DNA of 42,607 nucleotides from an uncultured Acidimicrobiaceae bacterium (GCA_903845085.1 CAIMWD010000043.1:1-42607), one strand, 5' to 3'; shown: positions 180 to 34,046, numbered from the stretch's first letter. Numbers and translations: made by a program. Notes: generated by a model not told the origin, from the sequence alone.

Positions 180-1880
<1,701 letters not shown>

Positions 1881-1933
1881 CAGAGGGATCGTTCGGTCAC
1901 TATCTGGGGTGTAATGGAGGGTCGAGGGTTAGC

Positions 1934-2338
1934 ATGAGGTTCGTGAGCGCCTCCGGTGATGCCTTCGACCTCGATCTCGCCCTCGCCGCGCTCGATGCCG
2001 ACGCCGGTGATCACCAGATGATGTTTCGACTCCTCGTGGAGCGTCTCTCTGCGGTTTTGGGCCCGCGACTACGGGTGGAGCGGGGTAGTCTCCTCAAGCG
2101 GAACGGCCCCATTCGCCGCCTCGAGATCTCGCTGGGCGCCTCCGAACTGATCGCCGAACTCGGCGAGGTCACTCCCCGCTTCTCGATCGCTAGGGTCTCT
2201 GGGGGGATCAAGATCCGTACCGAACCAAGTGATGCTGCGAGTTGGCTCCGCCTTCTTCTCGAGTCGCTGAATGAAGAGGCACAGCACAGCGCAACCGTGC
2301 GACAGGCACTCGAAGCGATAATTATCGGAGGAAACTGA
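1934..2338 (+). CDS. Small soluble hypothetical protein (134 aa), first gene of the YbjQ cassette
   Basis: ATG at 1934 follows GGAGG at 1916-1920. The stop overlaps the next start (TGATG at 2336-2340). No TM segment and no recognisable family. An alternative upstream start exists at 1874. Confidence 0.6.
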   Translation: MRFVSASGDAFDLDLALAALDADAGDHQMMFRLLVERLSAVLGPRLRVERGSLLKRNGPIRRLEISLGASELIAELGEVTPRFSIARVSGGIKIRTEPSDAASWLRLLLESLNEEAQHSATVRQALEAIIIGGN

Positions 2339-3147
2339 TGGCTCCAGGAGCAAATGAACCAGCTGACGACCTTCCCAAAGATGCGCATCACCGGCTCGAA
2401 GAGCTCGAACACGGTCTCTTCACCTCTGACCTATCGGTAAATGAGTTTCTTCTCGTCAAAGATGCCGGATTCCATCCACTCGGCTTTGTCATGGGCTCGT
2501 CGATCTACCACATCGGTCTCCAGACCAGGAAGTGGAGCCAGAGTCAGGAGCTCGACAAACTCACGAGCGCGATGTACTCCGCACGTGAGCTGGCGGTCAC
2601 ACGTATGGAGGAAGAGGCGATGGAGCTCGGTGCCGACGGCGTCGTCGGTGTCCGACTGGACGTCAATTACTACGAGTTTGGTGCCGACACCGCTGAGTTC
2701 ATCGCGATGGGCACCGCGATCAAGGCCGAGGATGGTCGCTCCTACCGTAACGCCGAGGGCAAACCGTTCACCTCTGACCTCTCGGGTCAGGCATTTTGGA
2801 CGCTGCGGAGGGTCGGCCATCTTCCGCTGGGTCTCGTGATGGGTACCTGCGTGTACCACATCGCCCATCGTGGGATCGGCCAGACGATGGGCTCGGTCGG
2901 TAAGAACCTGGAGCTTCCCAACTACACCCAGGCGCTCTATGACGCCCGTGAACTTGCCATGACACGGATGCAAGATGAGGCAAACCGCCTCGGAGCCTCG
3001 GGCATCGTTGAGGTGAAACTCATCGAGAAGTCCCACATGTGGGGAAGCCATACGATCGAGTTTCTCGCGCTCGGCACCGCGGTGACAAAGGAGGAGGGGG
3101 CGCCTCCGCTCCCCCAGATTCAGTCGACGATCTCGCTCGACAACTGA
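2338..3147 (+). CDS. Tandem double-domain YbjQ/UPF0145 (DUF74, putative heavy-metal-binding domain) protein, paralog 1
   Basis: Two modules. Each starts with FTSDLS followed by G(F/H)xPLG(F/L)VMG. Each ends with a YbjQ-like core: ARELAVTRMEEEAMELGADGVVGVRLDV...AMGTAIK and ARELAMTRMQDEANRLGASGIVEVKL...ALGTAV. Confidence 0.8.
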   Translation: MAPGANEPADDLPKDAHHRLEELEHGLFTSDLSVNEFLLVKDAGFHPLGFVMGSSIYHIGLQTRKWSQSQELDKLTSAMYSARELAVTRMEEEAMELGADGVVGVRLDVNYYEFGADTAEFIAMGTAIKAEDGRSYRNAEGKPFTSDLSGQAFWTLRRVGHLPLGLVMGTCVYHIAHRGIGQTMGSVGKNLELPNYTQALYDARELAMTRMQDEANRLGASGIVEVKLIEKSHMWGSHTIEFLALGTAVTKEEGAPPLPQIQSTISLDN

Positions 3148-3149
3148 CC

Positions 3150-4043
3150 ATGACGAACGCCACCGCCGCATCGGCTCCCATCGCAGCCGGAGCGTGGACC
3201 TCTGGGCTTTCCACCGCAGAGTTTGCTGCCACGCTCGAGGCCGGCCTCACCCCGCTGGGTTTCGTCCAGGGCTGCTCCGTCGTGAACTGGAATTTCTACG
3301 GGTTTGGCCTGAACTCTCTCGGTCTTGGCGGTGGACAGCTCTCGGGATACAGCGAGCAGTACAGCTGCCCGCACGGCATCGTCTCAAACGAGCACCGTAG
3401 GTACGGACTCAACTACGAGAAGACTTGGCTTGAGCGCGCCTATAAGAGCTCCTTCGCCGCTGCAAAGGAGCGACTCGTCAATGAGGCGCGTGCTATGGGG
3501 GCCTGCGGCGTCATCGATATCGTCGAGCGAACCGAGTATCACAGCGAATCAGGTGCCTTTGAGTTCACGCTGAATGGCACCGCGGTGGGTCTCTCTGGAG
3601 TCGCACCACCCTCGACCCCCTTCACCACCTATCTCGCCGGACAGCGCTTTAACCGTCTCATCGAGGCAGGCTTTGTTCCCGTTGAGATCACGCTCGCGAT
3701 CAGTGCAATAGGTGTCTACTCCTCCTGTGTCACGGAGTACCAACTCCGCGGCGCGGGAGCGACGGGACTCGGATTTGGGCAGATGTCCTACGGTGCGATT
3801 CCCGCCGGAGAGATCACGCAGATCACCAATGCGGAGATCGCTGCACGTTCACTGGTACGCGAACAGCTTCGACCGCAGCTCCACGGCGACATCCTGCACG
3901 GTGCGTTGCTAAAAGTTCGATCCCATGAGAGCGCCGAGGGTCCGCAGATAGAGGCGATCCTGCAGGGGACTCGTGTGCGTCAGTACCGAGATTTCGCCCC
4001 GATCGCTCCTCCCCGACCGGTGATCAGGTTGGTCGACCGATGA
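3150..4043 (+). CDS. Divergent tandem double-domain YbjQ-like protein, paralog 2
   Basis: ATG at 3150 lies 2 nt after the previous stop, so the longer ORF from 3039 was rejected. Module starts are WTSGLSTAEF...GLTPLGFVQG and FTTYLAGQRF...GFVPVE. Core: KERLVNEARAMGACGVIDIV...LNGTAVG. A long Gly/aromatic/Cys insert sits in module 1. Confidence 0.7.
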   Translation: MTNATAASAPIAAGAWTSGLSTAEFAATLEAGLTPLGFVQGCSVVNWNFYGFGLNSLGLGGGQLSGYSEQYSCPHGIVSNEHRRYGLNYEKTWLERAYKSSFAAAKERLVNEARAMGACGVIDIVERTEYHSESGAFEFTLNGTAVGLSGVAPPSTPFTTYLAGQRFNRLIEAGFVPVEITLAISAIGVYSSCVTEYQLRGAGATGLGFGQMSYGAIPAGEITQITNAEIAARSLVREQLRPQLHGDILHGALLKVRSHESAEGPQIEAILQGTRVRQYRDFAPIAPPRPVIRLVDR

Positions 4044-4888
4044 ACGAGGGGTTACCGAAGGATCTCCGCGCAGCGATAACCGCGCTTGGCGCTACCGGCG
4101 CCGCATCGACGACAGCTCGATCGATCACCTCCGACCTCTCGATCGATGAGACGCTCCTCCTGCACCAGATGGGTTTTGGCCCGGCCGATCTCGTTACCGG
4201 TTTCTCCATCGTCGCTATTCCCTACGGCACCTTCCTCAATCAATACGGACAGAGCGAACCGGTAGATCTGCCCGGTGCAACGAACGCCACCCTCGCCGCC
4301 TTTACCAACGCCATCGAACGGATGCGAGATGAGTGCCAACGGGCGGGAGGAATCGGTGTCGTGGGCGTAGAGGTGAAGGTGGAGGTGGCCGGTTCCTCGG
4401 TGTCGGTTGCGCTCTCTGGGACGGCGATCAATCCACTGGCGAGTGGCCAACGCCGTACCAAAGCAAGTCCCTTTGTCACCGACCTCTCCGTCCGTGACTA
4501 CGCCCTGCTGACCCGTGCAGGGTGGGGGCCGCTCGAGTTGGTCATCGGTGCAGGGTTCGTCGCCGCGCCACCACAACGTCTCGGTCAAGTGATGAGTCAG
4601 GCACGACAGAACGTCGAACTTCCCAATATCACTCTCGCGCTCCAACGGGCACGCGAGCAGGGGATGGAGCGGATGCAACAGGGCGCGATCGCGCACCACG
4701 CAGCCGGTGTTGTCGATGTGACCATCATCGATGGACCACTGGGGCACTCACATCATGTCTGCGCCTTCATCTGTTTTGGCACTGCAATCGAACTGATCGC
4801 TGAGCGACACCAGCTAATTGAGCCCCAGCTCATCCTCCCCCTCGACGACAGCTTTGACTTCGAGGCGACAGCGCTTCGGGGCGATTGA
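4040..4888 (+). CDS. Tandem double-domain YbjQ-like protein, paralog 3
   Basis: ATGA start/stop overlap at 4040-4043. Module starts are ITSDLSIDETLLL...GFGPADLVTG and FVTDLSVRDYALL...GWGPLELVIG. Cores: IERMRDECQRAGGIGVVGVEVKV...LSGTAI and MERMQQGAIAHHAAGVVDV...CFGTAI. Confidence 0.75.
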   Translation: MNEGLPKDLRAAITALGATGAASTTARSITSDLSIDETLLLHQMGFGPADLVTGFSIVAIPYGTFLNQYGQSEPVDLPGATNATLAAFTNAIERMRDECQRAGGIGVVGVEVKVEVAGSSVSVALSGTAINPLASGQRRTKASPFVTDLSVRDYALLTRAGWGPLELVIGAGFVAAPPQRLGQVMSQARQNVELPNITLALQRAREQGMERMQQGAIAHHAAGVVDVTIIDGPLGHSHHVCAFICFGTAIELIAERHQLIEPQLILPLDDSFDFEATALRGD

Positions 4889-5023
4889 GTCAATCTCACC
4901 GGTGAGGTACCGCTCGGGTGCCACGAGCGGATCTACAGACATGACAGCGGAGACCGCCTGCGATAGACCGTTGGCGGGGATCTGACACCGTGGGGGTGTT
5001 GGCAAGCGAGGGGGAGTTGCACG

Positions 5024-7003: not shown

Positions 7004-8551
7004 GTGAGCAGACCTACGACCACTACGCTCAACCGCGTGAGCCGCCACCCACATCGAACGTCCGTGGCGCGATCGTTTGAGCGACTCCGAGCTCACCCAG
7101 CGCTCGCCCTCTCGCATCTTCTCGTCGCTGGCCTCGTCATCTTCGTTGCCACCTGGCGACTTGGCGTCGCAGATGCCGCACCCGACGAATACACCTATCG
7201 CACCTGTGCTCGCGAGTATCTCTCGGGGGTATTTACCTGTAACCGCGAGCATCCACCACTGGTCAAGGAGATCCTGGCGCTCGGGATCTCCCTCGGTCAC
7301 GCGACCCTCGCCGATGCCCGACTCATCACCGCCCTTGCTGCGATCGCTACGGCATTCTTTTGCTATCTCTTTGTCACCGACGTCACCGATCGTGTCGGAG
7401 GGCTCTTTGCTGCGGCGCTTTGGGGACTCCTCCCTCAGCTGGGACGTGAGGGATCGAGCTCCCTAGAGGTGATCCGTATCGATCGATACGCGCTGATCGA
7501 TCCCTTCCTCGCGGCGCTCTTTGCCATGGCGCTCGCTCTCACCTGGCGCTACATCAGCCGTGGTGGTAGAGGTTACGCGCTCGTAACTGGCGCTGCACTC
7601 ATGCTGTTGCCGCTCGCGAAGGCACCGGGCGCTGCGATCGCCGTCGTCTTGGGTTGCTTTGCCCTCGGTGCGCGCCGGAGGGAGGAGGCGCGTTTGATCA
7701 CCCCTCTCTTCCTCCTCATTGGGGCACTCGTCGTCTTTGCCAGTGTTTACGCACCACTGGGTATTCACGGCACAGAGCAGCAGCTCTCCTACATGTTGCA
7801 CTTCAAATTCAATCGTGCGGTCGTCGTCGCCGGCCACCTCTATCAGCGAACACCGTGGTGGGCCGATCTCAGCTTCGCGGCGGCCGGTATCGGACTTGCA
7901 CCTCTGATTGTGCTTGGATGCTTCGGCCTCTCCGGACTCTTGCGACGTACCCTCCCCGTGGCAATGGCGCTGAGTAGCGCGCTCGCGCTTATGCTCTTCG
8001 TGGCGTTCGGTGTGCACCTCTCCTCGCCCACCTACTACGTCGAGTGGGAGCCGGGTCTCATCGTCGGTGGTGCAATCGGGCTCCGCAGCCTCACCATTGC
8101 GCCACCGATCAAGCTTCCTCTGATCTCCGTGCCGTTACTTCTCGGCGCGGTCATTATCCTGTGCACCGCGATGGTCACCGATCTCGTCGACCTCACGGCG
8201 ATCTCACCGGGTCCCTATGCGACGAGTGCAGCAAAGATGCACTGCACCACACCCTGCGTCGTGGACTATGTCGCCTATAACAACATCCCGGTGAGCTACA
8301 CGGAGGCGACGATGACGCTCCTCCTCGAGCCGCCGGTGGGTCATCGGCAACTACGTCATAACCCCCGCTATGTCGCGATCGACCCCGCTCTCTTTTTGAT
8401 ACATCCTGGGTGGCGAAAGATCGTGAACCGTTTCATTGCGCATGCGGCCTCCCTTGGCTATCAAAGGGTCACCACGGGGACACGCATTGAATTATTTACT
8501 CAGCTTGGCTCATCTCACACCGCCGCTACTCCCACCACATCTGGCCCTTAG
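7004..8551 (+). CDS. Polytopic membrane glycosyltransferase, GT39/PMT_2-like (phospholipid carrier-dependent)
   Basis: About 12 hydrophobic segments. The first loop carries a DE...Y...EHPPLVK motif typical of PMT/ArnT-type GT-C enzymes. The GTG start at 7004 is unverified. Confidence 0.6.
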   Translation: MSRPTTTTLNRVSRHPHRTSVARSFERLRAHPALALSHLLVAGLVIFVATWRLGVADAAPDEYTYRTCAREYLSGVFTCNREHPPLVKEILALGISLGHATLADARLITALAAIATAFFCYLFVTDVTDRVGGLFAAALWGLLPQLGREGSSSLEVIRIDRYALIDPFLAALFAMALALTWRYISRGGRGYALVTGAALMLLPLAKAPGAAIAVVLGCFALGARRREEARLITPLFLLIGALVVFASVYAPLGIHGTEQQLSYMLHFKFNRAVVVAGHLYQRTPWWADLSFAAAGIGLAPLIVLGCFGLSGLLRRTLPVAMALSSALALMLFVAFGVHLSSPTYYVEWEPGLIVGGAIGLRSLTIAPPIKLPLISVPLLLGAVIILCTAMVTDLVDLTAISPGPYATSAAKMHCTTPCVVDYVAYNNIPVSYTEATMTLLLEPPVGHRQLRHNPRYVAIDPALFLIHPGWRKIVNRFIAHAASLGYQRVTTGTRIELFTQLGSSHTAATPTTSGP

Positions 8552-9330
8552 CGCTGCCGCGGTCGACGCCGTGGCACGACGATGATCCCTCCCACACCAT
8601 CATCAACAACCTCGACCGCGGCACCAAAGTGCTTCCTGATCCGATCGGGTGTCAGCACCTCTGCGACCGCTCCCTCCACCACGACGCGACCTCGATCGAT
8701 CAGGGTAAGTCGATCGCAGAATTGGCCGGCGACCGTGAGATCATGCATCGCACAGATGACGGTGAGTCCCCGCTCGTGTCGAAGCTCGTCGGTGAGTTCA
8801 AGAACCTGCTCCTGGTGACCAAGATCGAGACCCGTGGTCGGTTCGTCGAGCACCAGCACAGAGGCCTCCTGAACGAGCGCACGACCGAGGACCGCCCGCT
8901 GGGCCTCGCCACCGGAGATCTCCGAGAGCGTCCGGTCGCGCAGATGAGCAAGCTCCAATCGACAAAGTACCTCCTCGACAACCTGCAGGTCCCGGGGACC
9001 CTCCGTCGCAAAGAGTGAGAGATGTGGTGTGCGACCCAGCATCACATAGTCACAGACGCGCATCATCGGGGGGAGCTCCGGTCGCTGAGGTACGTAAGCG
9101 ATCATCCGCGCGCTCTCGCGACGATCGTGGTGGATATCACCGCGCCCCTCAATCTCCACTACCCCTGCGTAGGGGATCGTGCCGACGATCGCCCGCAAGA
9201 TAGTCGACTTACCCGCGCCGTTAGGGCCGATAATGCCGAGCCACCCTCCCCGATCTATACCCGTGGTAACCGCCTCGGTGACGACCCTTCCCGAAAGCGA
9301 CACGGTGAGATCGCGCACCCGCACACTCAT
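8548..9330 (-). CDS. ABC transporter ATP-binding protein (FecE/BtuD type)
   Basis: Walker A GPNGAGKST, signature LSGGEAQR, Walker B VLVLDEPT, H-loop AMHDL. The start overlaps the permease stop. Confidence 0.92.
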   Translation of the reverse strand: MSVRVRDLTVSLSGRVVTEAVTTGIDRGGWLGIIGPNGAGKSTILRAIVGTIPYAGVVEIEGRGDIHHDRRESARMIAYVPQRPELPPMMRVCDYVMLGRTPHLSLFATEGPRDLQVVEEVLCRLELAHLRDRTLSEISGGEAQRAVLGRALVQEASVLVLDEPTTGLDLGHQEQVLELTDELRHERGLTVICAMHDLTVAGQFCDRLTLIDRGRVVVEGAVAEVLTPDRIRKHFGAAVEVVDDGVGGIIVVPRRRPRQR

Positions 9331-10388
9331 CGGCTGCCTCCCGCACGCCGCAACACCATAAGGAAGAAGGGCGCGCCAAAGAACGCGGTGATCACGCCGA
9401 GGGGGATCTCCGCGGGCGCAGCGATCGTGCGAGCGAGAAGGTCAGCGAGCACCAAAAAGGCTGCACCAAAGAGCACTGACAGCGGAAGGATCCGACGATA
9501 GGAGGACCCAACGACGAGTCGAAGCGTGTGCGGGATGATGATGCCAACAAAGCCGATGAGACCACTCATCGAGACCGCTGCCGCGGTGCCGAGTGTCGCA
9601 AAGATCACCGTGACGAGCCTCACACGGTGTGCTCGGATACCCAAACTGTCCGCCTCCTCATCGCCAACACTCATCACATCGAGCACCCGCCGGTAGGCCA
9701 CGAGCACCCCGGCGCTGATCACGACGTAGGGCGCGACGATCTCTACCTGTTGCCAGCTCGCGGTCGTGAGTCCGCCGAGGATCCAGGCGTAGGTCTGTTG
9801 CAGGTTCTGGGTATTGCGCTGCTGGGCAAAGGTCTGGACGGCGGTAAAGAAGGCCGCCACGGCAACACCCGCGAGCACCAATGTTGCAGTCGCGCGATAG
9901 CGACCACCGGAACGACCGAGGAGAAAGGTCACGATCGCAGCAACGAGACCGCCAGCGAAGGCGGCGAGAGGAACGGGACTGACCGGCCAGGAGGTCGTCC
10001 GTGGAAAGAGCTCTATTGCCAGTGTGGCGCCGAGTCCTGCCCCCGCCGCAACGCCGAGCAGATAGGGATCGGCAAGGGGGTTTTGAAAGACTCCCTGATA
10101 GGTCGCGCCGGCCACTGCGAGCATGGCGCCGACCAAGGCGCCAAGCACGATCCGCGGCATTCGGATCTGCCAGACGACCTGTTGATCGGTAACACTGAGC
10201 GTTGAGTGCACATGTAGCAGCGGGAGTTTCTCTAACAGCGTGGAGATCACGCCGCCGAGGGGAAGATCAGCAGGTCCGATCAGCGCGGCGAGGGTCATAA
10301 CCCCGACGAGGAAGAGCACACCGACGAGAAGTTGCCACGGTTGACAGCTGCTCGGTACTCCCCTCTCGCGCGCCGATCGGACCCACAT
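9327..10388 (-). CDS. FecCD/BtuC-family ABC permease
   Basis: Hydrophobic throughout, with the family-typical end GVITAFFGAPFFLMVL. Start set to the ATG at 10388, 5 nt after the upstream binding-protein stop. The longer ORF to 10481 overlaps that gene. Confidence 0.88.
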   Translation of the reverse strand: MWVRSARERGVPSSCQPWQLLVGVLFLVGVMTLAALIGPADLPLGGVISTLLEKLPLLHVHSTLSVTDQQVVWQIRMPRIVLGALVGAMLAVAGATYQGVFQNPLADPYLLGVAAGAGLGATLAIELFPRTTSWPVSPVPLAAFAGGLVAAIVTFLLGRSGGRYRATATLVLAGVAVAAFFTAVQTFAQQRNTQNLQQTYAWILGGLTTASWQQVEIVAPYVVISAGVLVAYRRVLDVMSVGDEEADSLGIRAHRVRLVTVIFATLGTAAAVSMSGLIGFVGIIIPHTLRLVVGSSYRRILPLSVLFGAAFLVLADLLARTIAAPAEIPLGVITAFFGAPFFLMVLRRAGGSR

Positions 10389-10392
10389 TGGA

Positions 10393-11340
10393 CTAACCCT
10401 GCTGAGAGAGGTGGAGGAGTGCACGCTCGATCTGCTGCGCGAGCACGACGATGCGCGGACCCCAGCGAGAGGCGATGTCATCGTTCAATCCGATGACGTT
10501 GCCCTTCGCAACCGCACTCATCGTGGACCATCCCGCTCGACTACGAACGGTCGTGACCGATTGGCCACAACAGAGCGTGTCCGCGAGAAAGATCAGCCGC
10601 GGATTCTTCGCCACGATGTACTCAGAGGAGAGCTGGGGATAGCCCGTGGCCGCGCCGCTCGCCGCATCGGCGATGTTGTGCAATCCAAACAGCGAGAAGA
10701 TCTGTCCAAGAAAGGTCGCCGAAGTCGCGGAGTAATAGGTCTGATCCAATTCGACGTAGTAACTGAGATGCCGCGTCGCCACCGGCACCGCTGCCACCAC
10801 CGCTGCGATCCTTGCCCGCATCGTGGAGATGAGTCTCTGCGCCGCAGCTGAATTGCCCGTCAGGGCACCGAGAGAGGCGATCTCGCCGTAGGCACCGGAG
10901 ATAGTCGTCGTCGCTGGCTCCTCGGCAACGGGGATATGCAGCTTTGCAAGCGCAGCGATCACACCACCCTCGTTCCCCGAGACCACGACGAGATCGGGGT
11001 TGTAGTGCGCAATGGCCTCAATGTTGGGGGTGTAACCACTGAGTGCAGAGACTGGCGCGCTTCGTGGATAGGTCGAGTCATTGTCGACTGCGATGACCTG
11101 ATGGCCCGCGCCGACCGCAAAGAGGTCCTCCGTTGCGGTCGGTGAGAGCGAGATGATGCGGGTGGGTCGCGCGGGGATGGTCACGACACCATTAGCAAGT
11201 CGAACCGTAACCGGAAAGTGGCCGGCCTTTGTTGCTGCTGAGACGGCACCGGTGACACCGAGCGCAATGCCGAGTGAGCCCGAGAGGGCAACCACAACAG
11301 CAAGTGATCGAAGACGTGGCGCAATTTGTAGACGGTACAC
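10393..11340 (-). CDS. Periplasmic-binding-protein (BtuF/FecB type) ABC substrate-binding protein
   Basis: Signal peptide-like N-terminus. PBP-fold pattern PTRIISLSPTATEDLFAVGAG...VIAV, NPDLVV, IASRWGPR. GTG start with GAAGGAAA RBS. It sits directly downstream of a cobalamin riboswitch. Confidence 0.85.
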   Translation of the reverse strand: MYRLQIAPRLRSLAVVVALSGSLGIALGVTGAVSAATKAGHFPVTVRLANGVVTIPARPTRIISLSPTATEDLFAVGAGHQVIAVDNDSTYPRSAPVSALSGYTPNIEAIAHYNPDLVVVSGNEGGVIAALAKLHIPVAEEPATTTISGAYGEIASLGALTGNSAAAQRLISTMRARIAAVVAAVPVATRHLSYYVELDQTYYSATSATFLGQIFSLFGLHNIADAASGAATGYPQLSSEYIVAKNPRLIFLADTLCCGQSVTTVRSRAGWSTMSAVAKGNVIGLNDDIASRWGPRIVVLAQQIERALLHLSQQG

Positions 11341-11464
11341 GAGTGAATTTCCTTCTGGTCAGACGCGTGACCGATTGGTCGCCGCCACCACGAAGGGCCA
11401 AGCTCACTCCGGGCACCATCCCCGGAACATGACCTCAGTCACCCTACGCGAGGGACGAGTTCGT

Positions 11465-11632
11465 TCTGCGAGGCAGGTCTCCTGGCTCCTGGTTCATCGC
11501 TCGTCCGCACCTTCCCAAGAATTGCTTCTCAGTGGTCTCTTGCGGAGTCACTCCCAGTCACAGTGGCGCGACCGCGTCGGTTTTTCACCGACTTCCCTTT
11601 TCAACACTGACGTTTGAGACGTCAGCATCACC
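11465..11632 (-). promoter_or_regulatory. Cobalamin (AdoCbl) riboswitch leader of the ABC importer operon
   Basis: The - strand reads GGTGATGCTGACG...GTTGAAAAGGGAAGTCGGTGAAAAACCGACGCGGTCGCGCCACTGTGA...GAGACCACTGAGAAGCAATTCTTGGGAAGGTGCGG...AGCCAGGAGACCTGCC. It contains the B12 box GCCACTG (+ coordinates 11571-11577) and the conserved GGGAAG/GGTGAAA/GGGAAGG/CAGGAGACCTGCC blocks. Confidence 0.85.
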
Positions 11633-11768
11633 TTGCAGATGTATTTAATTTTCAAGGTAGTACTCACGATGGAAAAACCATCGTGCCCCTGCATCCTTGC
11701 CGAGCATCATCCACTTCGCAAGTGGGACCACCAAGCCACGAGATCTTGCGTCGAAGATTCCCAGAGTG

Positions 11769-18672: not shown

Positions 18673-18842
18673 GCTCTCTCCCAATGGTCGTTGCTCCGGC
18701 TCATGCTGCGCCGCCTTCGATGAGCATATGCCCTCTACCTCACCGCAAGATTGAGAGGGTGGCGAGTAGCGTAAGGAGGTCGCTCCCGAGGGGAATGCGG
18801 TGTGTCGTGTCCGATACGCCACGCGAGCATCAAGGAGAATGC

Positions 18843-21755
18843 ATGTCCGACACGGAGGACCAGACCGAGGAGCTGCGACGCGTCGTCGAACGCGATCGGG
18901 CGATCTTTCGGACCGTCATCGCGTTCGCGATCTCTGCAGCCGTTTCGCTGCTGCTCTGGCATCACATCGGTCACACGCTGACGGGAAAGACCGATGTCGT
19001 CGGCTACCCACTCTTTGCGAACTTCAACGTCAATCGATACTTCGATGCCTTCTACCTGAGCGCCATAGTCGGCCCACTGCTCTTTCTCTGTACCTACGAG
19101 GTCATCGCTCGCGTCGGTCCGCTGCGCCGCAGCGTCGGCCGCAGGCGTGCGGATCGGAGAGAGCTGGTCGCTGACGGCGATGAGCTTCGCGAGCCGAGCA
19201 ATCGTTCGGGGCGCGTGCTGCGAGAGCTAATACGCCTACTGGGTGTCGGAGCACTACTCGGTGTCGAGATCGTCGCGGCAACCGCCATCACCTCGCCCTC
19301 GAGTCCGATGAGCGAGGTTTCGATCGCACTCGCCTACACGGGCGCAGTTGGACTCATTGCTCTCGTGATCGCCCGAGTGGTCACCACACGGAGCTGGCGC
19401 TCCGTCGCGAGTGCCGTGAACCTCCTCGGCGTAGGCGCGATGATGCCACTCCTCTACGGCATCTCTCAGGCCACCAGCGTCACCATCGCCTCTACACATC
19501 AGGTCATTCCCTACCATTGGATGCCACTTTGGGTACCGGTCGCCTTTGACCTTGCACTGATCGCCTATGTCGGTCACCGACGGATACGAAACGGTCACTC
19601 TGTTGCTCGGATCGAACAGGCGCTCATCCTCTTCGTCGCCATTCCCATCGTCATCTTCACCCTGCACGCCAACCTCCCTGGCGCGCTCGGTCCCATGGAC
19701 CCCTTCGGCGACGGGGAGTACCTCGCTGCCGGTTGGATGATGATCCACGGTGTCATGCCCTGGCGAGATCTCTACCTCATCCACGGTGTCTTCGATGATG
19801 GTTTCAAGGGCCTGATTGGCTACGCACTCTTTGGCCCAAGTCGATGGGCATCGGTTGCGGGAATCTCACTTCTGTTAAATCCGATCTACTGGGTCTGCCT
19901 CTACTACTTCGGCGCCCTGCTCTTTCGGCGGCGTCCCCTCTTCATCCTTGGACTCGCCCTCGCCGTCACTATCGGTGTCTTTGTCGATCAGGATCCCCGC
20001 TACACCTTTTGGCCACTGGTGCTCGTCCTTCTCGCTCGCGTTCTGAAGGTCCGCAGCTGGCCGAGGGTTCTCGCATTCGTCATCGCACTTCTCATTCAGG
20101 CGATCCTCATTCCGGAGATGGCCTTTGCACTCGCCGCCTGCGCACTTACGCTCGTCGCCTTTGAGATCTATGAGCGCAGGGGACCTCGACTCGAACTCCG
20201 GGATCTGAGGACGACTGCTCTCACGGTTCTCTTTGGTGCCATCTTTGGCGGAGGCTTCCTCATCTGGCTGGTCGCCGAACATGCGATCACTGGATTCGTC
20301 GGTTATTACCGCAACTTTGCTGACGCACACTCGCTCGTCGGAGGCATACCGCTCTATACGAACTACGCCGTGGGCACCTCCACCAGCGCACTCGGCGTGA
20401 CCCTCCATGCGGTCGCGATCCCACCGTCGTTTACCCGATACAGCATTGAGCTCATTGTGCCAGTACTCGCGATCATTGCGACAATCGCGCTCATCACCGT
20501 GCGAGTGCGGACCGGTCGTCGGCTCGTCATCCTCGATTGGCTCTCTATCGCCGCAGCGATCATGGTCACCCTCTACTACCAGAAGGGGATCAGCCGTGGC
20601 GACACGGGCCACATAGCGGAGGTTTACGCCGTCGCGACGCCGCTCCTCATCCTGCTGACCTATCAGCTGGTCGTGGGACTCGAACGTGCCCCTCTCCTCA
20701 CCCGGCAGATCGCAAGACTTCACAGTCTCGGAGCGAGTGCACGAAATCGCCTCGTTGGTCGAGCGGTTGTCCTCATTCCCAGATCTCCAATCGCACTCCT
20801 TAGCGTGATCGCTCTCTTGATCCTCGCACCCTCCACCATCAACGCAGCCATCGTCAATGTGAACTGGTTTATGCGCGCGAGCGCTCCGACACCGGCGGAG
20901 GGTGGATTCGTCGCCGGGGGGCCCACACTTGGTTACAACGTGAATGCGATCGACAAGGTCGCTGTCAGCGATATCCGTACCATCTTCGACCGGTATGCCG
21001 GGACTGATGGCGCCGTCTTCGACTTCTCGAACACGCCTGCAGTTGTCTCCTACCTGCTCAACCGCAAGCTTGCCTCGCAGTTCTACAACATCAATGACGT
21101 ACTCACGCCTGCGGCGCAGGCAACGCTGATCTCCGAGCTCACGCTCTCCAAGCCGGTGGTTGTCCTCTTCAACGGACTAGGCATGGGGGCATGGGACTTC
21201 ATTCCCAATGAGATCCGCGATTCCACGGTATCTGACTACCTCCTGACGAACTACCACCCACTGGTCTATGCAGACGGCCAGCTCCTCCTCCTTCGCAACG
21301 GTACAAAGCATCATGGAGGCCTTCCCCATCTTGCGGGGCCGACGCGAACCGTGCGCCTCTACTCTGCGCTGGGAACCTGTGATTGGGGCTACATCCCGAA
21401 CTACCTCCAAACACCGACCACGCCGTCGATACCGCCGAAGCAGCCCTCGCTGAGCCTCGGACTTAAGTTCATTGCCCATACCGCCGATGGAACGATCTAC
21501 CAACTCAGCCGAGTCACCGACCTCCAGAGCTATCACTGGATCTCGGCAACGGTGCAGGGGGCCACGGGCGATGTCGGACTCTCGATATCGAGCTTTCCAC
21601 GCAAATCCAATCGTGACATCACCTGGATCTCGCAGGGATCGACGACAACTCAGGTAGAGGTAGCGAGTTGCCTGCAATGGCATGGCTATGAACATCAACT
21701 CTTCCTCCGTTACTTAGGCGCGGGACATCCCAGTGCCCTTACGCTGATCGGTTGA
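18843..21755 (+). CDS. Large polytopic membrane protein (970 aa) with a C-terminal soluble domain, function unknown (possibly GT-C-like)
   Basis: ATG at 18843 with AAGGAG at 18832-18837. Roughly 15-20 hydrophobic segments over the first ~700 aa, then a ~270-aa hydrophilic domain. No family motif recognised with certainty. Confidence 0.75.
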   Translation: MSDTEDQTEELRRVVERDRAIFRTVIAFAISAAVSLLLWHHIGHTLTGKTDVVGYPLFANFNVNRYFDAFYLSAIVGPLLFLCTYEVIARVGPLRRSVGRRRADRRELVADGDELREPSNRSGRVLRELIRLLGVGALLGVEIVAATAITSPSSPMSEVSIALAYTGAVGLIALVIARVVTTRSWRSVASAVNLLGVGAMMPLLYGISQATSVTIASTHQVIPYHWMPLWVPVAFDLALIAYVGHRRIRNGHSVARIEQALILFVAIPIVIFTLHANLPGALGPMDPFGDGEYLAAGWMMIHGVMPWRDLYLIHGVFDDGFKGLIGYALFGPSRWASVAGISLLLNPIYWVCLYYFGALLFRRRPLFILGLALAVTIGVFVDQDPRYTFWPLVLVLLARVLKVRSWPRVLAFVIALLIQAILIPEMAFALAACALTLVAFEIYERRGPRLELRDLRTTALTVLFGAIFGGGFLIWLVAEHAITGFVGYYRNFADAHSLVGGIPLYTNYAVGTSTSALGVTLHAVAIPPSFTRYSIELIVPVLAIIATIALITVRVRTGRRLVILDWLSIAAAIMVTLYYQKGISRGDTGHIAEVYAVATPLLILLTYQLVVGLERAPLLTRQIARLHSLGASARNRLVGRAVVLIPRSPIALLSVIALLILAPSTINAAIVNVNWFMRASAPTPAEGGFVAGGPTLGYNVNAIDKVAVSDIRTIFDRYAGTDGAVFDFSNTPAVVSYLLNRKLASQFYNINDVLTPAAQATLISELTLSKPVVVLFNGLGMGAWDFIPNEIRDSTVSDYLLTNYHPLVYADGQLLLLRNGTKHHGGLPHLAGPTRTVRLYSALGTCDWGYIPNYLQTPTTPSIPPKQPSLSLGLKFIAHTADGTIYQLSRVTDLQSYHWISATVQGATGDVGLSISSFPRKSNRDITWISQGSTTTQVEVASCLQWHGYEHQLFLRYLGAGHPSALTLIG

Positions 21756-24498: not shown

Positions 24499-25869
24499 TC
24501 AGACCCTTGCCATATTGGCAAAGCGGGCGTAACTGTCGACAAAGGCCAGCTCAATCGTTCCGGTCGGTCCACTGCGGTGCTTCGACACGATCACCTCTGC
24601 GGTGCCGCGCTTCTCGGTCTCCGGTTCGTATTTCTCATCCCGATAGATAAACATCACGACATCCGCATCCTGCTCGATTGCACCCGATTCACGCAGATCG
24701 GAGAGCATCGGGCGCTTATCCGCTCGCGACTCAAGCGTTCGCGAGAGCTGGCTCAGCGCCACCACGGGAACATCGAGCTCACGCGCGAGCACCTTGAGAC
24801 CGCGGCTGATCTCAGAGATCTCTACCTGACGGTTCTCTGAGTTGTGGCGACCCGACATCAGCTGGAGGTAGTCGATGACGACGAGCCCAAGACCCTCACG
24901 ACTCTTCATCCGTCGCGCCCTTGCACGGATATCCATCACCGTGACATTTGGGTTGTCATCGATATGGAGCGGAGCATGTCCGATCCGGCTGATCGCTCCA
25001 GTGAGCTTTGTGTAATCCGAGTCGATCAGTCGACCATTGCGCATCCGTGTCGCATCAACGCGCGACTCTGCGGAGAGAACTCGCTGAGCAAGTTCGAGGT
25101 GGCTCATCTCTAAGGAGAAGAAGAGAACTGGAATACCTGCCATCGCTGCGTGGGTGGCGGCACCAAGTGCGAAGGCGGTCTTACCCATGGAGGGTCGAGC
25201 ACCGACCACCACGAGGTTTGATGGCTGTAGCCCCGCGGTTAACTTGTCGAGATCGGTATAGCCAGTCGGCACACCCGTGATCTCCTCACCGCGATCGACG
25301 AGTTGCTCGAGGCGATCAAGGGTGGCCGTCAAAAGGTTCGATATCTCTTCAACCGAATCCGTCGTACGGCGCTGAGCGACCTCAAAGACCATCGTCTCTG
25401 CACGATCAACCGCCGCGGTCACATCGTCGGGAAGTCCGTAACCGATCTCCGCGATCTCATTTGCGACGCCGATCAGTCGGCGCAGCAGTGCGTGCTCCTC
25501 AACGATCGCCGCATAACGACCCGCGTTAGAGATCGCCGGCGTATTCGACTGCAATGTCACCAGTGCCGCGGCACCGCCGATCTCCTCCAACGCACCCGCG
25601 CGTCGCAGCTCCTCCGCGACGGTAACTGCGTCTGCCGGCTCACCCCGACCGTAGATCGCCGTGATGGCAGAGAAGATCTGTGCGTGTGAGGGGCGGTAGA
25701 AGTCAGCGGCGGAGCAGCGCTCCAAAGCAGCGGCAACTGCATCGCGCGAGAGCAACATCGCACCGATCACCGATTCCTCGGCCTCAAGGTTGTGCGGTGG
25801 TATCCGTCCAACGACGTGGCTGGATGATGATCGCGGGCCATTGCGGGCTTCGCTTGAGGTAAGTGTCAT
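24499..25869 (-). CDS. dnaB: Replicative DNA helicase DnaB (no intein)
   Basis: PPHNLEAEESVIGAML N-terminus, Walker A GARPSMGKTAF, VVIDYLQLM, LSQLSR, IEQDADVV. Confidence 0.97.
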   Translation of the reverse strand: MTLTSSEARNGPRSSSSHVVGRIPPHNLEAEESVIGAMLLSRDAVAAALERCSAADFYRPSHAQIFSAITAIYGRGEPADAVTVAEELRRAGALEEIGGAAALVTLQSNTPAISNAGRYAAIVEEHALLRRLIGVANEIAEIGYGLPDDVTAAVDRAETMVFEVAQRRTTDSVEEISNLLTATLDRLEQLVDRGEEITGVPTGYTDLDKLTAGLQPSNLVVVGARPSMGKTAFALGAATHAAMAGIPVLFFSLEMSHLELAQRVLSAESRVDATRMRNGRLIDSDYTKLTGAISRIGHAPLHIDDNPNVTVMDIRARARRMKSREGLGLVVIDYLQLMSGRHNSENRQVEISEISRGLKVLARELDVPVVALSQLSRTLESRADKRPMLSDLRESGAIEQDADVVMFIYRDEKYEPETEKRGTAEVIVSKHRSGPTGTIELAFVDSYARFANMARV

Positions 25870-25940
25870 GATGCCTCCACCCTTACCCAGATTGGCTGGG
25901 AATCGCTAGGGCAATAACTTCGGGAAATCTCTCCAGAACC

Positions 25941-25981
25941 TGTGGATGAAAGGTGGATAACTCCACCCGTCATGTGGATGA
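25941..25981 (-). promoter_or_regulatory. Cluster of three DnaA-box-like 9-mers in the dnaB upstream region
   Basis: The + strand reads TGTGGATGA (25941-25949), GGTGGATAA (25952-25960) and TGTGGATGA (25973-25981). Each is one mismatch from TGTGGATAA, the complement of TTATCCACA. All share one orientation, with starts spaced 11 and 21 bp apart. Confidence 0.4.
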
Positions 25982-26091
25982 CCGAAACCGAAACAACCCT
26001 GTAACACTAGGTCGATCAGCCAATTTCGATCCTAAAGTCCATCTGTATCACTCCTCTGCCGTCTGGGGATTACAAAATGCACTTCAGGGAT

Positions 26092-26128
26092 AAAAAATCG
26101 GCCGACCCGCCAGGGCGGATCGGCCGAT
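26092..26128 (-). terminator. Rho-independent terminator downstream of rplI
   Basis: The - strand reads ATCGGCCGATCCG-CCCTGG-CGGGTCGGCCGAT followed by TTTTTT. This is a ~13-bp GC-rich stem with one G-U pair, starting about 20 nt after the rplI stop. Confidence 0.75.
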
Positions 26129-26150
26129 CGTGTAAGAAAAACTGCCAAAC

Positions 26151-26597
26151 CTAGGCCGGAACGACCTCAAGTCGGAGTTCAAAGGTGACCTCGGGGTGAA
26201 GCCGCACGCCCACTGCATGCTCACCGATCTCCTTGATGGGCTCGTGCGCAGCGAGCGTATGACGGTCGATGACCGCCCCGGACTGCGCTTCGACAGCAGC
26301 AACGATGTCGGCCGGTGTCACCGAACCGAAAAGCTTGCCCTCTTTACCCGCCTTCGCCGTGATGGAGATGACCATAGGCACCAACTTCGATGCGATCGTC
26401 TGTGCAGACTCGCGATCCTTTGCGTCGCGAAGGTCCCGCGACCGTCGCATCGAGGCCGCCTGCTCAGCGATGCCCTCAGAGGCGGTGATGGCGCGTCCAT
26501 TCGGGATCAGGCTGTTACGTGCAAAGCCATCGGCGACAGCGACAATGTCACCGCGCTTACCTACACCAGGGACGTCGGAGCGGAGTACGACCCTCAT
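26151..26597 (-). CDS. rplI: 50S ribosomal protein L9
   Basis: [19 protein letters not shown]... N-terminus typical of L9. ATGA overlap with the rpsR stop. Confidence 0.95.
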
Positions 26598-27037
26598 TCG
26601 GTCTCACCCGCCTCAACGAGCTCCAACTCTGCACCCTCATCTTCGCCAAGGTCGATCGACTCAATCGCAGTCTCTGGATCCGCCTCGTCTGACTTTGGAC
26701 GTGAGTAGCCGCCCTCGCGTGGTCCGCGGCCAGGGCCACGCCCCCCGGGGCGCTCACTGGTCGTGCGCTGGGTATAGGGCAGCAGTGCAAGCTCACGCGC
26801 CGTCTTAATCGCAAGCGCAACATCACGCTGATGCTGCTGGCAGTTACCCGAGACGCGACGCGCCCGGATCTTGCCGCGGTCTGACATGAACTTCCGGAGG
26901 ATCTGCACATCTTTGTAATCGATGTGCGAGGTGTGATCCTTGCAGAACATACAGACCTTTTTCTTGATCCGACGTCCGTTGTCCTTGGGGGCCCGACGAG
27001 TATTCGTCGACCGGTCCCGATCATTATTACGCGCCAT
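26594..27037 (-). CDS. rpsR: 30S ribosomal protein S18 with a ~57-aa C-terminal RGG/acidic extension
   Basis: Core [10 protein letters not shown]...[50 protein letters not shown] is classical S18. The extra tail is [22 protein letters not shown]...[30 protein letters not shown]. Confidence 0.93.
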
Positions 27038-27495
27038 TAAAAGGGCTCCTCATCTTCGTTGTACGAAGGTGCACCAGCGGACTGGGCGCGGGGTGCACCA
27101 CTTGCAAAGTTGTTGGCCTCACCGGGGCCACGCCGTTCGTTCTTCACGACCTGCGCCGTTGCCCAGCGAAGGCTCGGACCGACCTCATCGGCGACGACCT
27201 CGACCTTGGAGCGCTTATCGCCCTCCTGGGTCTCCCATGAACGCTGCTCAAGGCGACCCTCAACGATCACTCGGGCGCCACGAGTCAGTGTCTCCGCGAC
27301 GTTCTCGGCCATCTCGCGCCAACAGACGACGTCAAAGAATGAGGTCGCCTCCTCCCACTCCTGGGTCTGACGGTTCTGCCAGCGACGATTGACTGCGAGA
27401 CCAAAGGTCGCGGTCGCCTGTCCAGCGGGGGTGAAACGCAGTTCGGGGTCGCGGGTCACATTTCCCACGAGCACGATGGAGTTTCCGACTGCCAT
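27037..27495 (-). CDS. ssb: Single-stranded DNA-binding protein
   Basis: OB-fold N-terminus [21 protein letters not shown]...[10 protein letters not shown], Gly/Pro-rich linker and the acidic tip DEEPF. Confidence 0.96.
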
Positions 27496-27507
27496 GTCTG
27501 GCCTCCG

Positions 27508-27816
27508 TTACTTCGCGACGGGAACGGAACGCTCGCTCTGTCGCAGCACGCGGTGACGGATCACTGCGTCGCTCAGCGAGAGCATGCGGTCAACCTCTGC
27601 AAGTACCGCCGGCTCGCCGGTGGCCTCAATGATGACGTAGTAACCCTCAGTCTTGTGGTTGATCTCGTAGGCAAAATTGCGCTTGCCCCAACGATCCACT
27701 CGACCGGTCGTTCCGCCCTTGGAGCGGACGTACTCGCCAATTTTGTCGGTGGTCTCGCGGATCACCGTATCTTCAAGCGTTGCATCAAAGATGACAACTA
27801 TTTCGTATGGCCGCAT
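27508..27816 (-). CDS. rpsF: 30S ribosomal protein S6
   Basis: MRPYEIVVIFD...RWGKRNFAYEI. Start set to the ATG at 27816 with AAGGAGG at 27825-27831. The ORF extension to 27843 was rejected. Confidence 0.95.
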   Translation of the reverse strand: MRPYEIVVIFDATLEDTVIRETTDKIGEYVRSKGGTTGRVDRWGKRNFAYEINHKTEGYYVIIEATGEPAVLAEVDRMLSLSDAVIRHRVLRQSERSVPVAK

Positions 27817-27975
27817 CGCGGCACACCTCCTTCGGACCAGCACCTTGCGGCGTGGGCCCCGATTTTCGGGGCAGGGGCATATCTAGGACTGTTCATCCTA
27901 GCCCACCGCTACCAGGTGACCTCTCGCCCCTCGCAGAGCGTCGCGCCGACCGCTACCGCAGGAGATACCGCGAGC

Positions 27976-28797
27976 TCAGTTGGGTTTCGGAGCGTGATAA
28001 CTCTCCTCATCACTGGGGAACCGCAGTGCACGGACGTCGGCACCAAAGGAAGCCACCGCCTCACGTGCGACCTCGGCGAGATCGGCGTAGCGCCGGACAA
28101 ATTTTGGAGAGGCGGAGGAGCCAAGCCCCAAGATGTCGTGGAGTACCAGCACCTGTCCATCGGTATCGGGTCCAGCACCAATTCCAATTGTGGGGATATC
28201 GATCGCCTCCGTCACCGTCGCGGCAAGTTCACGGGGGATCCCCTCCAAGACAACGGCGAAACATCCCGCCTCAGCGAGGAGCTCCGCATCACGCAGGAGT
28301 AGTTTTGCCGCCGCCTCGTCACGACCCTGCACCCGCAGTCCACCCATCATGTGAACCGACTGTGGCGTGAGTCCAAGATGACCCATGACAGGAATCTCTG
28401 CAGCGACAATCGCCTCAATCACGCGAACACGTCGGGCACCACCCTCCAGCTTGACGGCATCAGCGCCCGCTCGGATCAGCTCGGCGGCGTTCAACACCGC
28501 CGCCTCTGTCGTCGTGTGATAACTCATCCAGACCATGTCGGCGATGACCAGTGCGTGCGGACGCGCCCGACGAACTGCGCGGGTGTGATGCACAATGTCG
28601 GCGATGGTGACCTCCAGCGTGCTCTCGAGACCGAGCACGTTGTTTCCTACCGAGTCTCCGACAAGGATCAGGTCGACGCCCGCCTCATCGACGATGCGGG
28701 TAAATGGAGTGTCATAGGCCGTGACCATAACGAGGGGATCACGACCCGATCGGCGCTTGTGTGTCGCGATGCTGGGAACCGTCAACGCGTGAGCCAT
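27976..28797 (-). CDS. panB: 3-methyl-2-oxobutanoate hydroxymethyltransferase
   Basis: MVTAYD, LVGDSVGNNVLG, ADMVWMSY, VKLEGG and GHLGLTPQS motifs. Start set to the ATG at 28797 with a GGGAGG RBS. The 89-aa upstream ORF extension was rejected. Confidence 0.93.
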   Translation of the reverse strand: MAHALTVPSIATHKRRSGRDPLVMVTAYDTPFTRIVDEAGVDLILVGDSVGNNVLGLESTLEVTIADIVHHTRAVRRARPHALVIADMVWMSYHTTTEAAVLNAAELIRAGADAVKLEGGARRVRVIEAIVAAEIPVMGHLGLTPQSVHMMGGLRVQGRDEAAAKLLLRDAELLAEAGCFAVVLEGIPRELAATVTEAIDIPTIGIGAGPDTDGQVLVLHDILGLGSSASPKFVRRYADLAEVAREAVASFGADVRALRFPSDEESYHAPKPN

Positions 28798-28855
28798 CTT
28801 TGTAACCTCCCACCGTCCAGCGCCTCGTAGCTGCCGGCGGCAGAGTCCAGCGTAG

Positions 28856-29296
28856 CTAGGAGCGCGCCCGTGCCCGCCCAAGAGGGGTCCGGCGGATGAC
28901 CTCCTGGGAGGAAAACATACGGACAAGGTGGTTCCAACGACAGGAGACACAGACCTCCACCACATAGAAGGAGATTTCACCACGGAGCGAGCGTGCGAGC
29001 TGTCGGAGCTCTTTAGTGGACCCCACTGCCCGGCCGGAGGCAGGAAGACGTGGTCCAAATCCAAAGATGACGTGAGTTAACCGTTCTGTCGAACAGATGG
29101 GACAGATCTCCTCCGTCACATGGCCGAGGTTCGTCGCCACCCGCAAGAGCTCTACCTGCGCATCACAGACATCGAGGCGCGAGAGACGACCGCGCCGAAA
29201 CTCCCGAATTATCTGGTCACGAGCAAGGCGATATTCAACCTGACCGAGACCGGTGAGTTCATCATCGGACGTTGTGGAGGGGGTCCAAGAGCTCAC
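28856..29296 (-). CDS. DUF5318-like conserved actinobacterial protein (Cys4 motif)
   Basis: VEYRLARDQIIREFRRGRLSRLDVCDAQ...CPIC...VCVSCRWNHL. It lies divergent to PadR-ino1, the usual genomic context of this family. GTG start. Confidence 0.65.
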   Translation of the reverse strand: MSSWTPSTTSDDELTGLGQVEYRLARDQIIREFRRGRLSRLDVCDAQVELLRVATNLGHVTEEICPICSTERLTHVIFGFGPRLPASGRAVGSTKELRQLARSLRGEISFYVVEVCVSCRWNHLVRMFSSQEVIRRTPLGRARARS

Positions 29297-29422
29297 TCAA
29301 AAAGGGTAGCCGGATCGATCTCCGATCCCGCGGTGTACTGGAGCACCGTTTATGAACATTGGTGATCCGGCTGTAACGAATCAACATATCGACTCGATAC
29401 ATCAATCTGCTATGATGCCCAG

Positions 29423-31460: not shown

Positions 31461-31471
31461 GGGTGCCGAAA

Positions 31472-32242: not shown

Positions 32243-32245
32243 CGT

Positions 32246-32440: not shown

Positions 32441-32554
32441 TTTGAGTTGGCCTCTTCTTATGGCGCCGTCACAATGATTTTCGCAACAGACAGCATGTTA
32501 CCCAATTACTACTAAAGTAAAAATCATAAGTTTCTTTTGCTCACACTTGGACCC

Positions 32555-33982: not shown

Positions 33983-34046
33983 CTCTCAACGGTAGTGGTC
34001 AATGCTGCAGCAAAAGTATCGACATCGTTAATGCGAACGCAGATTC

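Follow-up and report, generated by a model that had tools for sequence, protein, structure and literature searches.

The 42,607-nucleotide contig CAIMWD010000043.1 of an uncultured Acidimicrobiaceae bacterium (hereafter the window, meaning this whole stretch) carries four plus-strand open reading frames (ORFs) in succession at positions 1943–4888. We refer to these genes as A, B, C, and D. A encodes a small protein, and B, C, and D encode paralogs with two YbjQ-like modules each. An initial annotation, made from the sequence alone, had described this unit, and direct reading reproduced both its ORFs and its junctions. At the A/B junction (TGATG, 2336–2340), the stop TGA (2336–2338) and the start ATG (2338–2340) have one base in common. 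The B/C junction reads TGAccATG (3145–3152), in which the stop TGA (3145–3147) is followed by "cc" and the start ATG at 3150, and at the C/D junction (ATGA, 4040–4043) the start ATG (4040–4042) overlaps the stop TGA (4041–4043). The features of the locus are listed below, with model confidence given as the predicted local distance difference test (pLDDT).

1930–1935, plus strand: candidate −10 hexamer TAGCAT, 7 nt upstream of GTG 1943 (sequence reading)
1943–2338, plus strand: gene A, 131 residues, start GTG 1943; alternative starts ATG 1934 (134 residues) and ATG 1874 (154 residues)
2327–2332, plus strand: Shine-Dalgarno-like element GGAGGA, inside the 3' end of A and 5 nt ahead of the ATG of B (sequence reading)
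2338–3147, plus strand: gene B, tandem-YbjQ protein of 269 residues, PF01906 in two stretches
about 2407–2733, plus strand: module B1
about 2785–3123, plus strand: module B2
3150–4043, plus strand: gene C, divergent tandem-YbjQ protein of 297 residues
about 3189–3599, plus strand: module C1
3285–3365, plus strand: Gly/aromatic insert in C1, residues 46–72, variable in length and sequence, low pLDDT
3366–3395, plus strand: C73-P74-H75, G76, and H82 of C; C73-P74-H75 and H82 invariant and G76 near-invariant among 43 diverse homologues
about 3609–4019, plus strand: module C2
3726–3728, plus strand: C193 of C, in module 2, invariant among the 43 diverse homologues
4040–4888, plus strand: gene D, tandem-YbjQ protein of 282 residues, stop TGA 4886–4888
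about 4115–4441, plus strand: module D1
about 4457–4807, plus strand: module D2
4910–4931, plus strand: stem-loop CCGCUCG...CGAGCGG just after the stop of D, lacking a U tract; weak terminator candidate

The Pfam family PF01906 (YbjQ_1; UPF0145, formerly DUF74; gathering score 23 bits) matches B (88.2 bits, E = 6e-25) and D (37.8 bits, E = 3e-9) in two stretches each. For C there is a single stretch, whose 21.4 bits fall slightly short of the gathering score. When the family alignments of B, C, and D were cut into modules and the resulting profiles were compared by hhalign, B1, B2, C1, D1, and D2 were mutually related at 97–99.9% probability (B1 with B2, 99.8%; D2 with B2, 99.9%; D1 with D2, 99.2%; C1 with the B and D modules, 97.6–99.1%). 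C2 matched B1, B2, D1, and D2 at 83–89% (E = 3e-6 to 1e-5) and gave no match with C1 (3.8%, E = 0.011). In the AlphaFold2 model of C, built with 43 homologues (pLDDT 85, predicted template modelling score 0.80), both halves consist of a short helix, a hairpin, a long helix, and a hairpin, so that the YbjQ fold is seen twice. The best Foldseek matches of this model in the PDB are the YbjQ structures 1y2i (E = 3.7e-4) and 1vr4, followed by RcsF. The model is of low confidence only at the N-terminus, in residues 51–60 of the insert, in the loop 201–220, and over the last ~20 residues. Since hhalign places C2 with the other modules and the model of C repeats the fold twice, all six modules are YbjQ-like. 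The second module of C, in which the initial annotation could not pick out the core, belongs with the rest, and B, C, and D are paralogous tandem-YbjQ proteins with six homologous modules.

NCBIfam returned only far sub-threshold YbjQ matches for A to D, the PDB sequence search gave no match for B, and none of the four proteins contains a hydrophobic segment of transmembrane grade. B, D, and, in most lineages, C have in common an N-terminal motif of the LPxxAxxRL type and a Pro-rich C-terminal tail, PxPxhxL, with alternating hydrophobic residues. In C, these terminal motifs are conserved yet of low pLDDT in the monomer model, a pattern that would be expected of elements docking onto partner subunits. 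The long Gly/aromatic insert that had been noted in C is real; it is variable and of low confidence up to about residue 66 (pLDDT 56 for residues 51–60) and is followed by the invariant C73-P74-H75 and H82. Together with C193, these CPH...H...C residues form a candidate metal or redox site.

A is unrelated to these modules: hhalign against the B, C, and D modules reached at most 1.2%, which rules out A as a seventh YbjQ module. A search with the single sequence found eight relatives, and a profile of 49 locus-derived sequences matched 1611 proteins, so that A is not an orphan. Among the 120 matches listed, the relatives have 129–196 residues, nearly all of them 130–142. The family is marked by an invariant Trp and a near-invariant SGGIRIR hairpin, and the AlphaFold2 model of A (pLDDT 78) shows a five-strand antiparallel sheet that is both preceded and followed by a pair of helices. 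Foldseek found no significant match for this fold in the PDB or BFVD; rows for STING and NTF2-like proteins were discarded, with template modelling scores below 0.35. Pfam and PADLOC gave no match for A of the window, and the PDB sequence search with the Acidimicrobiales A profile gave chance-level matches only (FliE, PCC). Some members of the family match other Pfam entries weakly: DUF7433 in 7 of the 49, over the last strand and the first C-terminal helix (best E = 0.0019), and PHA_gran_rgn in four (best E = 0.01).

Conservation of the operon and the recurrent A and B pair

Relatives of C form 113 homologue clusters, and all the named ones come from metagenome-assembled genomes of the Acidimicrobiales type. 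Three genomic contexts found by the exact protein each contain a small gene followed by three YbjQ genes, with unrelated flanks. A scan of one genome per GTDB species located relatives of C in at least 453 stretches, and the best 80 loci with such a relative are almost all from Acidimicrobiales or Acidimicrobiaceae. Among the related loci, nearly all of Acidimicrobiales, 84 had flanks long enough for gene order, 82 could be used for flanking genes, and 78 for the promoter. A tblastn search with the window proteins found the succession A, B, C, D, all on one strand, in each of the 84. This four-gene arrangement is far beyond chance, and the co-occurrence that the initial annotation had proposed to check is seen in every one of these loci. 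The apparent long fusions of D in two loci, L062 and L075, are ORF-extension artefacts.

Adjacent genes overlap by 4 nt at the A–B junction in 66 loci, at B–C in 7, and at C–D in 70, and by 1 nt in 9, 52, and 4 loci, respectively; these counts take the start codon nearest to the upstream stop, which favors overlaps, and an NTGA start is not rare by chance. Since the choice of start favored overlaps, the robust statement is that there is no intergenic space, rather than any exact overlap, and the homologous parts of neighboring genes indeed leave no room for spacers in most loci. Conservation differs strongly between the genes. Identity to the window protein is 73–91% for B, compared with 37–65% for A, 34–59% for C, and 39–63% for D, and positions conserved at 90% or more make up 66% of B as against 23–29% of A, C, and D. 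The hyper-conservation of B fits a hub with many interfaces.

Comparison of the regions upstream of A also bears on the start of the operon. A TANNNT hexamer lies 5–9 nt ahead of the N-terminal start codon of A in 64 of the 78 loci, compared with 0.3% of random positions; the common hexamers are TAGGGT, TAGCAT, TAAGGT, or TACGAT, and in a smaller number of loci a GGAGG Shine-Dalgarno sequence takes the place of this −10 layout. A −10 box right before the start codon is the actinobacterial arrangement for leaderless mRNA. Since TAGCAT lies only 7 nt upstream of GTG 1943, a promoter immediately in front of A probably gives rise to a leaderless mRNA of the operon. A scan for the sigma-70 consensus found no promoter, and the signal emerged from the cross-locus comparison instead. 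The small first gene exists as annotated, but its length of 134 residues is probably wrong. The true start is most likely GTG 1943 instead of ATG 1934, since the resulting 131 residues equal the length of the nearest homologues (P0115–P0121); ATG 1934 falls within the −10 box. At the other end of the operon, the stem-loop at 4910–4931 has a fold z of −1.6, which is not significant, and the terminator scan reported none at this site.

The flanks, by contrast with the order of the four genes, are not conserved. Clustering of 816 flank ORFs yielded no family present in more than 12 of the 82 loci, and in none of the other tblastn loci is an ATP-grasp gene adjacent to the cassette. Since no flank family is conserved, the divergent ATP-grasp gene and the downstream amidohydrolase and SDR genes of the window are unlinked to the cassette, and the association with the ATP-grasp gene to which the initial annotation had pointed is not supported.

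The system also occurs outside Acidimicrobiales. An exhaustive phmmer search with B as the query matched 2211 representative proteins at E ≤ 1e-3, with 326 of them reaching E ≤ 1e-30, mostly tandem proteins of 240–300 residues; the longer relatives contain no extra Pfam domains, and one B-like cluster is from Alicyclobacillaceae. The invariant positions of this wider family are of the fold type only (Gly, Ala, Thr, and Arg). Phage genomes and viral contigs contained no relatives of the system. The loci in which B relatives have recognizable partners, and one degraded copy, are as follows.

Two Streptomyces linear plasmids (NZ_CP108424 and NZ_CP108443): Y1, B, A, where Y1 is a divergent tandem-YbjQ paralog
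Aulosira laxa conjugative plasmid: an A-like fragment, then a decayed B-like gene, next to an antirestriction gene
Metagenomic locus L090: order A–B, without paralogs within 6 kb
Metagenomic locus L093: order B–A
Metagenomic locus L092: B followed by a C-like and a D-like gene
Metagenomic locus L088: a Y1-type paralog followed by B, with no detectable A

On the Streptomyces plasmids, the B orthologue has 56–59% identity, the A protein matches the A profile at E = 1e-16 and 1e-13, and B and A overlap by 8 nt. Since the A and B pair recurs elsewhere in varied order, the recurrent core of the system is A and B, with C and D as accessory paralogs.

Several further observations were made on these relatives. 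Two B-like tandem-YbjQ proteins, P0278 and P0330, have a C-terminal extension of ~150 residues with strongly hydrophobic segments, which suggests membrane-tethered variants of the system. Immediately upstream of A and B in L090 (5094–5777, plus strand) lies a gene for a BON-domain or YtxH-like protein, a single case; proteins of this kind are of the general-stress type. On NZ_CP108424 (locus L085, 10280–12013), the three-gene variant is followed after ~2 kb by genes for two proteins, a membrane protein with a TIGR04222 domain and a DUF692 multinuclear-iron protein, both of which are absent from the second Streptomyces plasmid.

Probable relation to Rv1761c/Rv1762c, and comparison with known families

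The A family shows a weak but consistent similarity to DUF5073 (PF16817), the family of Mycobacterium tuberculosis Rv1761c. The A protein of L090 is the best-scoring family member (20.2 bits, E = 6.7e-4, under the gathering score of 27 bits), whereas A of the window has no match to DUF5073. The best PDB match of L090 A is 2k3m (Rv1761c), which is weak (E = 0.37). The aligned Rv1761c fragment itself matches DUF5073 at 141.5 bits (E = 1.7e-41); a profile of diverse A proteins (A6) aligns with this fragment at an hhalign probability of 62%, and in an hmmsearch against a decoy set of 1740 sequences the fragment ranks right after the true A members, again weakly (E = 0.07–0.25). The earlier statement that A belongs to no recognizable family thus needs softening.

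Rv1762c is a protein of 262 residues with two DUF74 domains (PMC9846648). It lies in the same RD152 block as Rv1761c, and in M. bovis the DUF5073 gene is directly beside a gene for a heavy-metal-binding-domain protein (PMC11449866), just as A of the window adjoins the tandem-YbjQ gene B. On the strength of the annotation and the weak A similarity, Rv1762c–Rv1761c is probably the mycobacterial B–A pair, and the window operon and this pair are probably the same system. The pair is non-essential and lies in the deletion-prone region RD152. Rv1762c was consistently present in material pelleted through 38% sucrose and then run on a 10–50% gradient, and the same preparations contained the encapsulin Cfp29, which forms 25-nm particles, and DyP (PMC8635971). 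Such behavior points to a particle of very large size, or to Rv1762c being attached to one. The family can thus no longer be called one that has never been studied, as a probable B-type protein has already been seen experimentally. As in the window, the M. tuberculosis locus pairs a B-type tandem-YbjQ gene with a small A-like neighbor; the order, B followed by A, is that of Streptomyces. It differs from the window in being a two-gene version that lacks C and D and is located in RD152. Rv1761c is treated as a small membrane protein, whereas A of the window has no hydrophobic segment. The Streptomyces plasmid variant likewise combines a B orthologue, an A-family protein, and a further divergent tandem-YbjQ paralog, but it is plasmid-borne, has the order paralog–B–A, and includes one extra paralog rather than two, which lacks CPH...H...C.

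The modules of B, C, and D all share homology with the UPF0145/YbjQ domain, which has known structures (1vr4 and 2gtc from Bacillus cereus, 1y2i from Shigella flexneri) and is equally unexplained in function. Canonical YbjQ is a single domain of ~100 residues that forms a homo-pentamer, whereas B, C, and D comprise two modules each, and each module is preceded by an extra element of FTSDLS plus a helix. In addition, three diverged paralogs are here encoded with a fourth, unrelated protein, and C1 has an insert of ~30 residues with a Cys/His motif. RcsF, DUF1471 (YhcN/SrfN), and the archaeal Se-binding protein 2jz7 are alike in fold only, with no sequence homology. They are periplasmic or outer-membrane stress-signalling proteins or, in the last case, a single-Cys selenium binder, and none belongs to a tandem or multi-paralog operon. 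In the BMC-T shell proteins of bacterial microcompartments, a tandem-duplicated oligomerising domain occurs in several paralogs that are encoded together and form pseudo-symmetric tiles. This likeness is an analogy; the present system has no homology to BMC-T, no enzyme cargo genes, and no sign of a closed shell.

The initial annotation knew of no described function for this architecture, and a full-text literature search on the family and gene names gave the same answer: it found no paper on this operon, and none that gives it a function. A thiamin-phosphate-synthase activity found in this search presumably belongs to YjbQ/UPF0047 and is then not transferable to PF01906. Its attribution to "YbjQ" (PMC7084401) was rejected as a mix-up of names. 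The components belong to known but uncharacterised families; what appears novel is the multi-paralog tandem architecture, the A and B core, and the connection with Rv1761c/Rv1762c. The YbjQ/UPF0145 family is very widespread in bacteria, and although it has had solved structures for about twenty years, no function has been found. The operon defines a multi-component system, composed of the invariant A and B pair, optional C and D, and putative membrane-tethered variants, and spread over at least 84 Acidimicrobiales loci as well as Streptomyces, Cyanobacteria, and Bacillota. Rv1761c and Rv1762c lie, both unexplained so far, in a region that is clinically variable, and one of them is an unexplained constituent of encapsulin preparations. 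Seeing these genes as one system offers testable handles on an old orphan family in tractable actinomycetes.

Proposed assembly and alternative explanations

The products of the operon almost certainly act together, and we consider a soluble hetero-oligomeric assembly with a core of A and B, perhaps related to stress, to be the best reading, with a probability of about 0.5. The self-contained operon, with junctions that overlap or nearly do so, would yield four soluble cytoplasmic proteins, and A, B, C, and D would most likely combine into one hetero-oligomeric assembly of YbjQ-fold modules, a fold that is pentameric in its solved single-domain members. A hetero-oligomer, as the initial annotation had proposed, is plausible, with indirect support from the fixed gene order and overlapping junctions, from the repeated pairing of A with B in other lineages, and from the conserved terminal motifs of low confidence in the monomer model. 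B would serve as the invariant hub and the DUF5073-like A as its obligate partner, and C and D would be paralogous subunits added in Acidimicrobiales. The Cys-Pro-His...His...Cys site of C probably holds a metal or redox-active center; metal binding by C is plausible as a lineage-specific property. By analogy with Rv1762c, the assembly may be large and sedimentable and may aid tolerance of oxidative or acid stress, a role that is only hinted at.

Several points weigh against this assembly. We infer its stoichiometry, its binding of metal, and its physiological role, and the hetero-assembly comes from genomics only. Tandem modules fill no five-fold ring in a simple way, and the wider B family has no invariant residues that look catalytic. 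In L088, no A is detectable within the available 6.7 kb. The A–B fusion proteins P0248 and P0246, which would have joined the core pair in one chain, are absent from every fetched locus and may be frameshift artefacts. The CPH...H...C site is missing from the Streptomyces paralog Y1, so that the Cys/His site is not a general feature. On the mycobacterial side, the similarity of A to DUF5073 and Rv1761c is weak by sequence (20.2 bits, E = 0.37, 62%), and Rv1762c is placed by its annotation; no mycobacterial member turned up in the B-like clusters when Rv1762c was sought. Its sedimentation could reflect encapsulin association or contamination. The moderate sensitivity of Rv1762c::Tn to H2O2 at pH 4.5 is taken from a preprint and does not appear in the retrieved passages of the journal version.

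The main competing view, which we regard as rather doubtful, is that the three co-transcribed tandem-YbjQ paralogs build separate homo-oligomers, with partly redundant or specialised roles and no hetero-complex, and that A would be a small regulator or chaperone unrelated to them. Homo-pentamers are indeed known from the solved YbjQ structures 1vr4, 2gtc, and 1y2i (PMC4092069), the paralogs evolve at very different rates, and the minimal versions with A and B (L090; Rv1761c/Rv1762c) indicate that C and D are dispensable elsewhere. However, strict retention, fixed order, and overlaps in every locus are unusual for redundant paralogs, and the terminal motifs, though conserved, lack structure in the monomer model. 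A bolder version of co-assembly would make the tandem-YbjQ proteins the tiles of a self-assembling megadalton particle, a cage or stacked-ring body, in which one module gives the five-fold contacts and the other the lateral ones. In this scheme, B would serve as the tile common to all, with C and D as tiles of particular lineages and A/DUF5073 as a factor for assembly, capping, or membrane tethering. If true, this would account for the evolutionary freezing of almost the entire surface of B, for the production of several tandem paralogs from one tight operon, and for the pelleting and fractionation of Rv1762c with the 25-nm encapsulin particles; we nonetheless think such a particle unlikely. 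A system for binding metal or for metal homeostasis, with the Cys/His site of C as sensor or storage, is just as improbable. In its favor are the invariant C73-P74-H75, H82, and C193 of C, the conserved His residues (YH motifs) of both B modules, and the fold shared with the archaeal Se-binding protein (PMC4092069). On the other side, B, the most conserved protein, has one Cys only, the Y1 paralog of Streptomyces does without the Cys/His site, and conserved neighbors such as a metal transporter, a metalloregulator, or a metal-responsive operator are lacking. The label "putative heavy-metal-binding" is itself a guess from structure with no experiment behind it.

The remaining alternatives fare worse. 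The presence of Rv1762c in encapsulin preparations could mean that B-type proteins are encapsulin cargo or accessories and that the operon supplies encapsulin-associated factors, but co-sedimentation does not prove encapsulation. A Pfam scan of 29 window ORFs revealed neither encapsulin (Linocin_M18) nor DyP, the 82 loci have no conserved neighbor, and reading of the C-terminal tails revealed no recognizable cargo-loading peptide, so that this explanation seems very unlikely. A mobile conflict or anti-phage defence module would agree with the differing flanks between loci, the plasmid-borne copies (linear plasmids in Streptomyces, a conjugative plasmid with an adjacent antirestriction gene in a cyanobacterium), and the location of the M. 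tuberculosis pair in the variable region RD152. Yet A, B, C, D, and the ATP-grasp protein gave no PADLOC-DB 2.0 match at E ≤ 0.1, phage genomes and viral contigs lack relatives, effector domains such as a nuclease or an NTPase are absent, and B is conserved like a housekeeping protein. Moreover, the window copy lies in the core chromosome near dnaB, murJ, and the gene for the CCA-adding enzyme, with unremarkable GC content. Cooperation of the cassette with the divergent circularly permuted ATP-grasp enzyme, for example as a handler of substrate or product in peptide modification, could be read from the arrangement in the window, where the two are adjacent and divergent, ~60 nt apart, and the identity of the enzyme is solid (PF14403, E = 3.5e-158). 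It is contradicted by the comparative data, since the gene is not adjacent in the other loci and no flank family is conserved. Both readings are largely contradicted; we hold a defence role to be barely credible and a partnership with the ATP-grasp enzyme less credible still.

Surroundings of the operon in the window

The divergent gene upstream of the operon (180–1880, minus strand) encodes a circularly permuted ATP-grasp protein, as the initial annotation had recognized, with the PF14403 domain at residues 98–475. Genes of this kind are usually expected to have partner genes, and here the gene runs toward the edge of the window, so that any partners would be cut off. A perfect (TGCTGT)x6.3 repeat at 241–278 encodes a run of 13 glutamines near the C-terminus, beyond the Pfam domain. 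This trinucleotide-type repeat could be a contingency element or a length-variable tail. A (TC)n tract lies at 7–53.

The region 24499–42589 encodes a DnaB helicase, PanB, inositol-1-phosphate synthase, the CCA-adding enzyme, MurJ, and a PG_binding/amidase protein, which places the cassette in the core chromosome. The gene order of this region resembles that of the origin-proximal region of other actinobacteria. Two ORFs, 18684–21755 (plus strand, 1023 residues) and 35182–37254 (plus strand, 690 residues), have no Pfam match at E ≤ 1e-5. The sole Rfam match of the window, unrelated to the cassette, is a cobalamin riboswitch (126 bits) at 11455–11650 on the minus strand. It lies upstream of a Peripla_BP_2/FecCD/ABC_tran operon (8548–11340, minus strand), whose genes are predicted to form a B12-regulated uptake system of the BtuFCD type.

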